From positions 24,180,001-24,244,000 of the forward strand of contig OX597824.1 in assembly GCA_951406725.2 (NCBI GenBank): DNA of 64,000 bases, written 5' to 3'. Every line of letters starts with the position of its first letter. Positions within the stretch are counted from its first letter, which is position 1. Positions 15,405 through 60,240 of the stretch are shown one piece after another. The stretch is from Octopus vulgaris (lineage: Eukaryota). The notes beneath the pieces are model-generated. The model was not told the origin of the DNA. It worked only from the letters and a program-made list of their open reading frames with translations, and did no database searches. A program made the translations under genes and the position numbers.

Positions 15405-16967
15405 ACGGCGGGTGCTTCTTTCAGTATCCGTCCACCAAATCTCCTCTCAAGGCTTTGGTTGGCTTGAGGCTGTAGTAGAAGGTACTTGCCGGAGGTACCA
15501 CGCAGTGGGACTGAAGTCAGAGCCATGTAGTAGGGAAGCAAGCTTCTTTATTTCTTTTGAATTACCATAAAGGCATTACACAGAGGGGGGGGGACACTAC
15601 AACAGATGTGGGGACATATAACAATTAAAAATATAAAAAAATAAGATATGATATAATTAATGACACGTGAAAATGAACATGAAAAACAAATTAAAATATG
15701 ATATTATGAATGATATCTGAAAATGATATTATGAAGAATGTACTACTCACCCCACACTGAGTAACACCACTCGCCGCCTCTGGGTCCTAAGTCCTGTTAC
15801 CCCTTCAGTCCAATCCCTTTTTCCCCTTTCTCCATCATTTAGTGACATCCTTCTCTCCGCCATATATTCGTAACCCCTTTTTCCACCGGGGAGAGGCCGT
15901 CTAAATTTTGTGGTGTTTGTTCTTTCTTTTTCTTTTTTTTTTTCTTGGGAAGAAATGGGTTGGGTGGGTTTGGTTTCTGTATGGGATGTAGTTGGATTGG
16001 GGTACCACATCATACTCAGTGTTTTTTTTTCTTTTTTCTGCTTTCTCCTTCTGCTCTCTGTGACTTTCCGTTCTTCCTTCTTTTCCTCCTTTCCTCCGCC
16101 TGTCTTTTCTTCCTCTCTTTTCACTTCCGTTTCCACAACTGTATCCTCAGCCATTGTCTTCTGTGAGGGCAGTATGCTCTAATGTGGCCCTTTTGGCTGC
16201 ATTTAAAACAACCTGGTACTCTGCCCTCTACCCACATCCTCAGCACAATTTCCCCCAACGTCACAGTCTCTGCCAAGTTCTCTAGATGACCCTCCTCCGC
16301 CTGAATAATTAGTTCAAGTGTCCTTCCTTTCCACCCTCCTTCTTCCGTTTCTGTGGCTTGGAGGACAGCCGCTTTCTCCTCACTTCCAAGCCACTTCTAT
16401 ATCCGGTGGAATTGCTTCTACTCTCACCTTGGAAATCTTCCTTCCAAGGTATGTAGGCATAAGCACTACTTCCTCTGTTTTCACCGTCAACTCGCTAGCC
16501 TCCTCTACTGTCCTAAATTGGACGACCATTTTGCCATATCTTCTTCCTTTGGTTATGTACGTTATCTCCTTTGTTCATTCCCTCAGCACCTTTTCCACTT
16601 CTGCCTCCAACTGTTCCATCTTTTTCCTTTCAGCGAGTGCACCTTATAGGTGTTCGTTTTTTTCTCCACCATTTCCACAATCACTTTGGGGAGCGACAAC
16701 TTCACGTCGCCGCCCACCTTCTGAGCCATCTTCTCGTACTCCTTCAGACCAGTCAAGTCCATCTCCCTTCGCTTCACCTCCGTGGCTTCAACACTCCGTC
16801 CATCTTTATGACCGCCCTTACCAGCTCCTCCTCATACGTCAACTCAGACCCGTCAAGGTCGGAGTACATCTTCTAAGCAAAACAAAAAACTACGTCCGAC
16901 TCTTACAAAATCCAGACAGCAAATAACTCGGAAAGCAAGCTTCTTAGCACACAGCCACGCCAGCGCC
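15405..16967 (-). mobile_element. SINE family A interrupted in its head by an ORF1-only element
   Basis: Head at 16933-16967, remainder at 15405-15548. Confidence 0.8.
15549..16932 (-). mobile_element. ORF1-only (zinc-knuckle) non-LTR retroelement, copy 1, decayed
   Basis: 13-bp TSD AAGCAAGCTTCTT (15536-15548, 16933-16945). Translation YITKGRRYGKMVVQF..VLMPTYLGRKISKVRVEAIPPDIEVAW and VEGRVPGCFKCSQKGHIRAYCP (CX2CX4HX4C). K/E-rich region, A-rich 3' end, no RT. Confidence 0.85.
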
Positions 16968-17189
16968 TATATAAATATACATATACATACATACACACAC
17001 ATACATATATATATATATGTATATATATATATATATATATATATATATATATATATATGTCATGTTGGACCATATATATATATATGTGTGTCATGTTGGA
17101 TCATATATATATATATATATATATACGCCATGTTGGATCGTTAGCCCCTACACGCAATTTTTTTCTCTCCTTGTTTCTCTCCTTGTTTC

Positions 17190-17225
17190 TTTTCTGTCGA
17201 AGAGCGTAGGCTCGAAACGTAAAAG
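17190..17225 (+). ncRNA. Degenerate minimal hammerhead-ribozyme-like motif (Penelope-type)
   Basis: TTTT-CTGTCGA-A-GAGC(GTAG)GCTC-GAA-ACGT-A-AAAG. Core position 6 is non-canonical. Confidence 0.4.
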
Positions 17226-17321
17226 ACTTGTTTTATTTCTATTCCTGAACGCCATACTAATAAATTATTTGTTTGTACTCCACCTGCCTTCGTCTTTTGT
17301 TTATTTTCGTAAACCTTCCGT

Positions 17322-18050
17322 TATATATATATATATATATATATATATATATATATATATATATATATATATATATATATATATATATATATATATATAT
17401 ATATATATATACATATATATATATATATATATATACATATATATATATACATATATATATACATATATATATACATATATATATACATATATATATATAA
17501 TATATATATATACATATATATACATATATATATATACATATATATATATACATATATATATACATATATATATATATATATATATATATATATATATATA
17601 TATACATATATATATATATATATATACATATATATATATATACATATATATATATATATATATATACATATATATATATATATATATATATACATATATA
17701 TATATACATATATACATATATATATATACATATATATATATATATATATACATATACATATATATATATATATACATATATACATATATATATATATATA
17801 TATATATATATATATATATATATATATATATATATATATATATATATACATATATACATATATATATATATACATATATATATATATATATACATATATA
17901 CATATATATATATATACATATATACATATATATATATACATATATACATATATATATATATATATACATACATACATATATACATACATACATACATATA
18001 TACATACATACATACATACATACATACATACATACATACATACATACATA
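17322..18050. repeat. Long (AT)n/(TACA)n microsatellite
   Basis: Directly visible. Confidence 0.95.
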
Positions 18051-57137: not shown

Positions 57138-57502
57138 TACTCTCTTTTACTAGTTTCAGTCATTTGACTGCGGCCATGCTGGAGCACCGCCTTTATTCGA
57201 GAAAATCAACCCCAGGACTTATTCATTGTAAGCCTAGTACTTATTCTATCGGGCTCCTTTTACCGAACCGCCAAATTACGGGGACGTAAACACATCAGCA
57301 TCGATTGTCAAGCGATTTTGGGGGGACGAACACAGATATATACATATATACGACGTGCTTCTTTCAGTTTGCGTCAACCAAATCCATTCACAAGGCTTTG
57401 GTCGGCCCGAGGCTATAGTAGAAGGCACTTGTCCAAGGTGCCACGCAGTGGGACTGAACCCGAAACCATGTTGTTGGTAGACAAGCTACCCGCCACTCCG
57501 CC
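57138..57502 (-). mobile_element. SINE family A
   Basis: Matches family A. Confidence 0.85.
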
Positions 57503-58347
57503 TGGTTGTTCATAAATCTTTTTATAAAAATCATTTAGTGATGTACTTTGTGTGTTCGCCTGTGGATATATTTCTTATATTTTTGTGGGTGATCTCGAAG
57601 CACAAGAATCTATGAACAGCGTTTAAATAGTTTAAAAAGAAAACGTTTGGCTAGAAAAAGTCGATGGCTGCCCTTTAAGAATGGCGGTTAATTGCTTTCA
57701 TTCATGTTTTGTATAAATAAATAAACGCGTCAGATTGTGGTGAGAAGGGGTTGGCTGCCACTGAAAAATTTAGTGATTGATTATTAAAATAAAATTGGCG
57801 ATCTGGCAGAATCATTAGCACGTCGATAAAAGGACTGGTGTCGTTTCTTCCGGTTCTTCACATTCTGCGTTCAAATTCCAACGAAGCCGATATTGCTTTT
57901 CATTTCAGGGTCGATAAAATAAAATACCAATCTGTAATCGATTGCCCCATCTACTCAAAGTTGCTGGCTTTGTGCAAAGTTCAGAAAGTTATATAAGAAA
58001 CTCCAGTTAGATGCAAAACAAAAAGGAAACCTCGGCAGTGGTGTGTGTTTCTTTACTCTGTCCCAAAATAGTTCTGATTCAGGTCACACAATATTGAACA
58101 TCTCATCAATAAATTCATTCAAAAAGTCATTGTATTCTTTGTATCATGAATGTTGACTCGCAATGAGACACATGTATTTACATCACAATATAAGATATTT
58201 ACGCAAACATTTTAGCGCACCCTGCAACGTTGGAGGCTTATATATAATGCGTGCGTGTATATAGAGGGCGGACCAAAAGTCATGCACCAAAACATATAAC
58301 ATTTTATTTATTTTACGTTATTAGTATTATTATTATTTATCAAGGTA

Positions 58348-58850
58348 TAGAGCTGGCAGAATCGTTAACACGCCGGGCGAAATACTGAGCGGTATTTCGT
58401 GTCCCGCTACGTTCTGAGTTCAAATTCTGCCGAGGTCCACTTTGCCTTTCATCCATTTCGGGGTCGATTAAATAAGTACCAGTTACGTACTGGGGTCGAT
58501 ATAATCGGCTTAATCCGTTTGTCTGTCCTTGTTTGTCCCCTTTGTGTTCAGTCCCTTGTGGGTAGTAAAGAAATAGGTATTTCGTCTGCCGTTACGTTCT
58601 GAGTTCAAATTCCGCCGAGGTCGACTTTGCCTTTCATCCTTTCGGGGTCGATTAAATAAGTACTAGTTACGGACTGGGGTCGATATAATCAGCTTAATCC
58701 GTTTGTCTGTCCTTGTTTGTCTTCTCTGTGTTTAGGCCCCAAGATCGACTTTTCCTCCCATTCTTTCGGGGTCGATAAATTAAGTACCATTAAAACACTG
58801 GGGGGGGGGGAGTGATGTAATCGACGAACACCTCCCCCAAAATTTCAGGG
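58348..58850 (+). mobile_element. SINE family B tandem multimer
   Basis: One head; the body restarts at GTATTTCGTC after the tail. The final unit has the CCCCCAAAATTTC tail. Confidence 0.8.
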
Positions 58851-59112
58851 CTATTATTACTATTATTCATTTTGCTCATCATGTACAAGTATGTGAGCAT
58901 TCATCGTTATTTTATTTATTTTATTCAATTTTACGAATATTGAAACACGACTTTTACAATTCTGGAGCGTATTGAACTTATTGGTGCTTGACTTTAGGTC
59001 CACACTATACATATGTATATGTGTGTACAAACATATATATGTATCTAAGTATATATCAGCCACTGATAGATATATGTATAGTACAAAAGTGTGTGGTAAG
59101 AAGCTTGCTTCC

Positions 59113-60240
59113 GATCGTACTGGAAGCTAAACAACTCCCCCAGACAACACACAAGCACGCACACAGAACAGTCCCCGCAAAGACAAACACTCCCACCCCC
59201 TCTGTTGTGGTGCCGGCCCCCAAACGAAACAACGGAAAGACCCAACCCCTGCGCACATAAGCCCCTGCAAAAACAAAATTTCCCACCCCTTGAAACCTGA
59301 GGCACGGGAAGCTAAACAAACCTATTTTGACTTGCGAGAGATATTGTAGCCGGATTGAGGAACTAGTACAGAGGGCGTTAACCGGCGCTGTAGTTAATAA
59401 CAAGTGGTGGTTCGCCCTCAAGAGAGCCATTCGTTTCGAGTCTGTTAGGTTTAGCTACTAACTAAGACTAGATAAGGCTAGAATAGAAGGGTAACTAGTT
59501 AAGGACCTAGAGAAGGTGTTTAGGTTGGGCTCTGCATCCCACATTTTGGCAGCGAGAACGGACTTGGACCGTCATCTCAAAGCCAAACATAAGGGTTGCA
59601 GAGTTCGGACTAAAGCGCGCGCATTGGGCCGTGAGCTAATTAATGTTGCCGGATGGGCCCATATGGTAGAAATCCAGCGTGGGAATGATGCCACAATAAG
59701 GTCTCTTATTGATGACAATGGGAGCTCGGTCGAGGACGAGATGTGTGAGGGAGGGGCTCTCAATCATGGTGAGGCCCTTAGAGGCTTCCTGTCTGGTGAC
59801 CCGCGTCTATCGGCATGAGAAGCTGAGTGCTGTGAAGGCCCAATCACGGCCAAGGAGGTGATCGAGATGCTAGGCGAATGCCCCGAGGAGAAGTCGCCGG
59901 GTCTCGATGGTCTACCCTATGAATTTTATAACGGTATGCCAGTCTTGTTCGGGCGCCTACTGGCCAGCGTCTACACCAATTGGTAGCAGAATGGGAGAAT
60001 TCCTAAGCCTGCGAGCGGAGGGCTGGTGCGTTGATCAGGAAGGACCCGAGCAAGGGGGACGAAATAGGAATTTTCAGACTCCTAACACTGTTGAACACAG
60101 AGTTAAAGATTTTGGCCAAAGTGCTAGCGAAAAGGTTGGCGCGTGTCGTGAACAGACTTGTAGAGGAAGCGCAAAGTGCCCTATCCCGGGCAGGTTGATC
60201 CACGACAATCTCCATCTTATATGCTACTGCTTAGAGTAGC
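59113..60240 (+). mobile_element. Tx1/L1-like LINE ORF2 fragment starting at the SINE A target site
   Basis: Follows TGTGTGGTAAGAAGCTTGCTTCC (59090-59112). YWKLN, CEGPITAKEV..KSPGLDGLPYEFY, LTLLNTELKILAKVLAKRL, IPGRLIHDNLHL. Stops and frameshifts are present, and the 3' end is missing. Confidence 0.8.

Follow-up and report, generated by a model that had tools for sequence, protein, structure and literature searches.

Site-specific insertion of autonomous and ORF1-only LINEs at one base of a SINE in Octopus vulgaris

We analyzed a 64,000-nucleotide stretch of the Octopus vulgaris genome (assembly GCA_951406725.2, contig OX597824.1, positions 24,180,001 to 24,244,000, forward strand), here called the window, in which three inserts of long interspersed nuclear element (LINE) type interrupt copies of a tRNA-like short interspersed nuclear element (SINE). 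All three sit after base 22 of the SINE and in its orientation. The insertion point, SINE position 22/23, lies between A-box-like and B-box-like motifs. The inserts (elements 1 to 3) and their surroundings are as follows, with open reading frame abbreviated as ORF.

16946..16967, minus strand: host SINE head of element 1 (22 nt, A-box-like), upstream of the element
16931..16945, minus strand: 5' target copy of element 1, AAGAAGCTTGCTTTC, an old A-type target
15549..16930, minus strand: body of element 1, decayed and ORF1-only (family 1), with ORF1 remnants at 16637-16154
15534..15548, minus strand: 3' target copy of element 1, AAGAAGCTTGCTTCC
15412..15533, minus strand: rest of the element 1 host SINE (B-box-like motif and body)
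25900..25921, plus strand: host SINE head of element 2
25922..25936, plus strand: 5' target copy of element 2
25937..28036, plus strand: body of element 2, decayed and ORF1-only (family 2), with an ORF1 remnant at 26277-26831 that has a weak zinc knuckle
28037..28051, plus strand: 3' target copy of element 2, 12/15 identical to the 5' copy
28052..28175, plus strand: rest of the element 2 host SINE
29968..30645, plus strand: local duplicate (97.6%) of the element 2 3' end and SINE remainder, with the second 3' end at 30507
59090..59112, plus strand: SINE head remnant and 5' target copy of element 3
59113..60236, plus strand: element 3, a 5'-truncated, internally deleted fragment of an autonomous family, without a 3' end

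A first inspection of the sequence (the original prediction) had placed all three junctions at the same SINE site and in SINE orientation, and they are indeed present there. After elements 1 and 2 the SINE resumes from the second target copy, again as predicted, and the resumed part carries the B-box-like motif. With the nick placed 1 nt beyond the A-box-like motif, the host promoter is split, in line with the proposed separation of the two boxes. The predicted target site duplications of 13-14 bp are real, but their length is 15 bp, decayed to 13 matches in element 1 and 12 in element 2. By composition, the target 14-mer is expected 0.0009 times in the window. The further claim that the three insertions were independent holds for elements 1 and 2, whose only similarity is a 101-bp stretch in ORF1 (71%) and which are thus separate insertion events. 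Element 3 occurs at three places on the contig with flanks 98% identical, and is one event multiplied by segmental duplication.

The element 1 5' end is about 10 nt short relative to other copies, and element 2 contains a later insertion near 27493-27870. Part of element 2 (27057-27498) recurs as a 442-bp inverted duplication (28170-28611; 99.5%) that starts right past the resumed SINE. The inverted and direct (29968-30645) duplicates reflect a recent local rearrangement, and the direct one is no independent insertion. Between them lies a fifth ORF1-type remnant (28944-29588, minus strand), 28% identical to the ORF1 of family Y, described below. Element 3 joins an ORF1 piece to an ORF2 piece (amino acids ~244-569) and is 78-82% identical to three autonomous families, which we call O, Y, and M. 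In elements 1, 2, and a further element, element 4, tblastn found ORF1 remnants and no ORF2.

Family Y, reached by a search with element 3, is ~5.44 kb long and encodes an ORF1 with a zinc knuckle and an ORF2 with endonuclease, reverse transcriptase (RT), and zf-RVT domains (PF03372, PF00078, and PF13966, all above cut-offs, with catalytic motifs present). Its median pairwise identity is 98.5%, and ORF2 is open in 11 of 63 full-length copies. Among solved structures, Y ORF2 best matches human L1 ORF2p (E 1e-66 over 13-877), with R2 proteins at E 1e-19; the structures matched included no other RT of the apurinic/apyrimidinic endonuclease (APE) clade. A CCHC zinc knuckle in ORF1 is a feature of the Tx1 clade; the autonomous ORF1 knuckle scores 23.9 bits against PF00098 (cut-off 20.8) and that of element 2 scores 16.7 bits. 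An RT with 64% identity was found in Argonauta hians. Homology searches, cluster look-ups, and an Atlas search returned generic names only, with no match named Tx1. The order of the ORF2 domains and an RT nearer to L1 than to R2 indicate that family Y belongs to the L1/Tx1 group.

The same insertion point holds across the 2.8-Gb genome. For families 1 and 2, we took the best 30 relatives each of the 40-41 matches listed, and the target precedes the 5' end in 29/30 loci in both cases. The family Y sample comprised 80 loci (20 chosen by ORF2 similarity, 55 listed matches to an element-only pattern of the 3' end, and five listed matches unique to the same pattern extended into the first target bases); genome-wide, the two patterns have 108 and 104 exact matches, respectively. 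Here, 80 of 81 3' ends lie at the SINE site and one lies elsewhere; 78 of the 80 were assigned by a scripted rule, and two, which this rule had flagged as off-site, lead from one copy to the following one in a tandem array. The SINE resumes after 74 of the 81 ends, another element follows in most other on-site cases, and no Y 3' end was seen at another SINE position. Thus, the flank tabulation finds junctions concentrated at one SINE base rather than spread along the SINE or the genome, and the predicted sequence-specific targeting of the A-box region is borne out by family Y and both window families. Site-specific insertion at one SINE base is near certain. Distinct 3' ends found at the site number at least 27. 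Exact intact SINE heads number 63,270 genome-wide and exact junction-type heads number 574, so ~0.9% of exact heads are split by these elements. The nick context, TT/A, would also suit an ordinary L1-like preference with chance insertions in an abundant repeat, but that account is practically negligible against 80/81 ends at one base of a target with ~63,000 exact occurrences in 2.8 Gb.

These flanks also bear on whether the SINE head forms part of the element's own 5' terminus, or whether the two were amplified as a unit. As such a reading would have it, the distal bases of the 5' duplication are carried along by the element (see below), yet we regard the reading as very improbable: the SINE resumes after the element or another element follows, head and remainder carry private mutations (with an identical private change in both target duplications at locus L100), 5'-truncated copies use the same site, and copies sit behind other elements without any SINE head, with the A box far away (L095, L101, L198, L214, L216, and L224). 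Five truncated Y copies have intact junctions at the site (L183, L184, L188, L199, and L228); two others have unrelated sequence on the 5' side, and several extend beyond the sampled stretch. Because the duplication re-creates the target, families pile up in head-to-tail order; at one SINE site, three young full-length Y copies follow one another, each junction with an extra-T scar of the kind described below (L224-L225, G000:C9:2664200-2684000).

Element 4 lies at a different kind of site:

48536..48553, plus strand: 5' copy of an 18-bp duplication, with the empty site in a paralogous block at ~36543-36561
48554..48570, plus strand: leader of element 4, a copy of its family's usual target that makes up the first 17 nt of the element
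48571..50482, plus strand: body of element 4, ORF1-only, of a related family
50485..50502, plus strand: 3' copy of the duplication

The usual target of its family (family 4; 725 candidates, copies 93-99% identical, loci L251-L280) is not the SINE but the region around the ORF1 start codon in a related element. Family 4 builds mixed tandem arrays, and its subfamilies differ in leader and target sequences. This accounts for the observation in the original prediction that the copy at 48554 is at an unrelated site, since the family of this copy is a different one, with a target of its own. Element 4 itself is an off-target insertion that carries its own family's target as a leader, and as such lends independent support to a leader model for the SINE-targeting families.

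In family Y, 62 of 63 full-length copies have TAAC at the end of the 5' duplication. Even where the 3' copy does not end in TAAC (22 copies), the 5' copy still does in 21, the remaining one having no 5' copy; by comparison, the truncated copies L183 and L228 retain the TTAC of the target. Family M behaves similarly: of seven copies in which both ends are available, two have TTCC as target, and in these two the 5' side reads TTAC. In 16/21 copies at mismatched targets versus 7/41 at matched ones (p=1.2e-5), the 5' copy contains one extra T following target position 9, 10, or 11. These extra-T junctions are scattered over the Y tree without clustering, which rules out heritable leader variants. 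Altogether, the last ~4-7 nt of the 5' duplication likely come from the element rather than the target; the original separation of SINE head and element therefore stands for the 22-nt head and not for these distal bases. Read most simply, the junctions suggest that the first base of the RNA lies a few bases within its own duplication and that RT, before it passes to the top-strand overhang, adds an untemplated base, more often where pairing is imperfect.

A comparable 5' junction model has been put forward for R2Bm, with 27 nt of target RNA retained, in the accessible text of PMC6895275. For both elements, the proposal is that the RNA keeps target sequence at its 5' end and that the cDNA pairs with, or jumps to, upstream target DNA. 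R2Bm differs in having a restriction-like nuclease, a ribozyme like that of hepatitis delta virus (HDV), and 27 nt of 28S rRNA, whereas the octopus element is of APE type, with ~4-7 nt and no Rfam ribozyme match. Five weak Rfam matches on L103 1400-1850 include no ribozyme family, and an HDV-like ribozyme fitted by eye was rejected for the wrong spacing of P3 and L3; retrotransposon ribozymes are often absent from Rfam. None of 24 sequencing runs is listed as carrying RNA. Contigs from four sequencing runs cover family Y, though such contigs say nothing on transcription or RNA start, and those compared at one locus showed no usable empty-site joint.

The host SINE has A- and B-box-like motifs recognized by eye; ARAGORN reported 0 genes, and there was no Rfam tRNA match. 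One octopus CORE-SINE is named OR1 in the accessible text of PMC4824008. The label "commonest SINE" in the original prediction is not established, as a second SINE has at least 105,896 exact tail matches versus 63,270 head matches for the host, two patterns that are not comparable. Copies of this second SINE lie at 255-640, 18656-19126, and 44001-44304 (minus strand) and at 58342-58702, 38585-38806, and 52565-52783 (plus strand). Within its own head it has a site where head-to-tail arrays of 184 bp build up, and it is rarely found at the site studied here (2/68 tails; 0 of the first 100 listed). Its tail closely resembles the LINE 3' untranslated region (UTR) and terminal hairpin, and it is therefore likely mobilized by the same clade.

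Heads of the host SINE occur as variants A (AAGAAGCTTGCTTCC), D, B (AAGTAGCTTGCTTAC), and C (AAGTAGCTTGCTAAC), and median body divergence is 11.7% for A, 5.3% for B, and 2.1% for C (10, 27, and 16 copies). A-type heads are occupied by families 1 and 2 (copies 72-86% identical to those in the window) and by autonomous family O; family M is mostly in T4 heads with a TTAC end, and family Y in T4 heads only. As a pattern, older families occupy old A-type heads and younger families occupy younger B/C heads. Family Y was at A4 heads in 0/80 cases versus 20/72 intact heads in sampled flanks (p=6e-8); a tally by eye gave 17 A4 heads among the first 100 exact heads listed. An apparent avoidance of D-type heads (0 of the first 100 exact junctions listed, by eye) was rejected, as family M uses D heads (L358 and L359). 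From A to C, three changes fall inside the 15-bp site and several more in the body (only seven A copies); given both kinds of change and so few A copies, an arms race between SINE and elements is possible only.

Variant preference might instead reflect SINE age or chromatin, not sequence, if the elements were tethered in Ty3-like fashion to young, transcribed, or TFIIIC-bound SINE copies. Insertion 1 nt past the A-box-like motif fits such tethering, as do the slight divergence of Y targets (median 2.7%) and their lean to the youngest C type (50:27 versus 37:38 in exact heads, p=0.07). However, Y targets are not significantly younger than intact B and C heads (p=0.10), and among heads at least 7.5% diverged, A4 accounts for 0/7 Y targets versus 12/21 intact heads (p=0.01). 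Insertions also occur behind other elements at a distance from any A box, as listed above, and none was seen in a tRNA gene among the flanks examined. We therefore consider tethering improbable.

The 3' ends carry a second trace of the target. In family Y, the reverse complement of target bases 1-9 lies ~83 nt before the end in 68 of 75 ends. Among 79 non-Y ends, the core antisense motif is present in 33 (at ~45 or 60-90 nt); 30 of these match their own target variant and three do not. Scored by duplex energy over 40 clusters, the own variant was paired better in 30, worse in six, and equally in four; a control region under the same scoring gave better in nine, worse in 18, and equal in 13. 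Bulged complementarity of 9-12 nt is kept in diverged families. Each of the two tail classes contains both motif states, which implies two or more changes unless tails recombined. Guidance of target choice by the tail RNA is plausible but unproven.

A terminal hairpin was found in 32 of the 40 clusters (shuffles: mean 4.3, maximum 9), with compensatory stems (TGCC/GGCA, GGCC/GGCC, GGCT/AGCC, TGTC/GACA, and CGCC/GGCG). The hairpin and a GAAATA end are common to ORF1-only and autonomous families, which would fit trans-mobilization of the former. Elements 1, 2, and 4 combine ORF1 homology with a LINE-type 3' end and a target duplication, the combination by which HAL1-like elements are recognized. 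HAL1, HeT-A, and Ag-Sponge are ORF1-only non-autonomous LINEs according to the accessible text of PMC5786205. Like them, the octopus elements keep ORF1 and the LINE ends and have lost ORF2; the difference is that many octopus ORF1-only families and their autonomous partners use one single-base SINE target. By analogy, the octopus elements appear to work like HAL1, and we do not file them as HAL1 proper.

Altogether, an L1/Tx1-type LINE clade and its ORF1-only relatives insert at one SINE base, probably through an endonuclease nick and with target-matching RNA ends that probably help docking. Insertion falls after SINE base 22 in the bottom-strand context CTT/AC, with a 15-bp duplication from which the SINE resumes, as the junctions show. 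On the model of L1 and Tx1L biochemistry, the ORF2 APE endonuclease would make the nick, RT would prime there, and the top strand would be cut ~15-16 nt downstream. The junctions suggest that the RNA begins ~4-7 nt inside its own 5' duplication and that the top-strand overhang is reached from the cDNA end by pairing or by a jump, often with one untemplated base; the distal bases of the new 5' copy would then be the element's. From the covariation, the antisense of target bases 1-9, ~45 or 83 nt before the 3' end, may pair with the displaced top strand or read-through RNA and help set the SINE variant used. ORF1-only families such as elements 1 and 2 would borrow ORF2 via the common hairpin and GAAATA end, and, as the pattern above shows, successive families pass from old A-type to younger B/C heads. 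We advance only tentatively the stronger idea that targeting by an APE LINE is partly RNA-guided, with an antisense 3' UTR tag that reads the top strand, a sense leader that seals the 5' junction, and single-base RNA changes that re-aim successive families at new SINE subfamilies. Such a clade could be viewed, with the same considerable doubt, as a hyperparasite that follows a moving target, the head of which has undergone three changes within the 15-bp site.

Several points weigh against an RNA-based account. The evidence is DNA sequence throughout, and some mismatches between 5' and 3' copies can be later mutations. SINE head age and sequence are confounded, every scored A head being at least 9.5% diverged. 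In the two windows scored, 46 of the 79 non-Y 3' ends lack the tail motif; L247 and L302 are discordant, as is L146, probably through a false motif, and a short (~480 bp) non-coding passenger family (L243, L247, and L161) breaks the covariation with a T-type-matching tail motif at A-type heads. The clusters are related, so the 30:6 ratio overstates the number of independent events. Families 1 and 2, the window's own, lack the motif and are as site-specific as the others, and family-1-like elements without it are also found at T-type heads (L056-L058 and L198). These last observations suit a reading in which the endonuclease alone accounts for both specificity and its shift, as for Tx1L, and the antisense tail merely follows the target, kept for example for a read-through hairpin that aids 3' end processing. 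The accessible text of PMC1950540 implicates an endonuclease loop in target reading and reports that the Tx1L endonuclease alone nicks almost only its target. In octopus, the corresponding hairpin loop is the same in Y and most M copies, and two O copies differ at 3/9 positions, so a protein change between A-type O and T-type M/Y could explain the shift. O and Y endonucleases are only ~75% identical overall, however, and the loop change does not exceed this background divergence; as a cause of the target shift it is indistinguishable from that background and was set aside. An endonuclease-only account also leaves unexplained why tail base and target change together in each of the two tail classes and why bulged complementarity persists in diverged families, and we rate it as rather unlikely.

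Base pairing between RNA and target is described for other site-specific APE elements: in R1Bm read-through RNA and SART1 3' UTR repeats, sense copies located at the extreme 3' end reportedly pair with the primer strand. If so, the octopus system would share with them an RNA-target pairing that aids insertion and differs in that its motif is antisense and 45-83 nt upstream. The R1Bm and SART1 work appears by citation only in PMC3649969.

Insertion of Tx1 elements into other transposons is already known. The accessible text of PMC4494074 describes Tx1-Mar, Tx1-8_Crp, Tx1-4_AMi, and Tx1-9_AMi of crocodilians and Tx1 of Xenopus as inserting preferentially into transposons, and treats a family as target-specific where one repeat type occupies >20% of flanks (Kojima 2015); the values here are 80/81 for Y and 29/30 twice for families 1 and 2. 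By this analogy, the octopus group appears to work like target-specific Tx1. The crocodilian and Xenopus cases share APE LINE insertion into a transposon, tandem insertions sandwiching a ~15-16 bp duplication, and non-autonomous passengers with the same target. Their targets are DNA transposons (piggyBac-, Mariner-, and Harbinger-type) and long terminal repeat (LTR) elements, whereas the octopus target is a SINE, and these accounts, as far as the same text goes, mention neither an antisense tail nor a target-derived leader, nor families that succeed one another along with target variants. Keno (U2 snRNA genes), Kibi, and Koshi (microsatellites) are likewise Tx1-clade elements with a fixed site in a multicopy target, as given there (PMC4494074). 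Functional RNA genes and simple repeats are under other constraints, in contrast to the fast-evolving retroposon used in octopus. Mutsu and Dewa, also Tx1-clade elements, occupy fixed sites in multicopy small-RNA-type or repeat targets and differ from the octopus group in the same way.

For Octopus vulgaris itself, the accessible text of PMC13282606 describes 13 recently active L1-Tx1 families with 421 insertions and contains nothing on target sites. PMC8869645 does not mention SINEs. In the literature covered, which lay outside Repbase, subscription papers (including Kojima and Fujiwara 2004), and the PMC4494074 supplements, we found no report of a SINE-targeting LINE, variant tracking, an antisense tail, or the octopus system.

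The remainder of the window is also rich in repeats. A 5.5-kb duplication (36543-42031 and 50482-56006; 95%) includes two alpha-tubulin-like open frames (40696-41883 and 54675-55862; recognized by eye from translation). A nearly complete endonuclease-RT element of another LINE clade, in three overlapping frames and 22% identical to Y ORF2, lies at 30931-33890 (plus strand). Further ORF2 remnants related to the clade studied here, themselves duplicated, lie at 34786-35602 and 44619-44881 (minus strand), and a Tc1/mariner-like transposase fragment (by eye from translation) lies at 22627-23145 (minus strand).

These elements form a natural series of matched element and target variants in one genome (O with A, M with B, and Y with B and C, plus dozens of passenger families), which puts two questions within reach of testing: how an APE-type LINE comes to alter its target specificity, and how 5' junction and second strand form. 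In the junction scars, template jumping by an APE element would be recorded directly in the DNA. Should target choice indeed be steered by the antisense tail, the tail would offer a simple handle to re-aim an insertion machine. For the octopus genome, repeat annotation is affected, as about one exact SINE head in a hundred (574 versus 63,270) is split by these elements.

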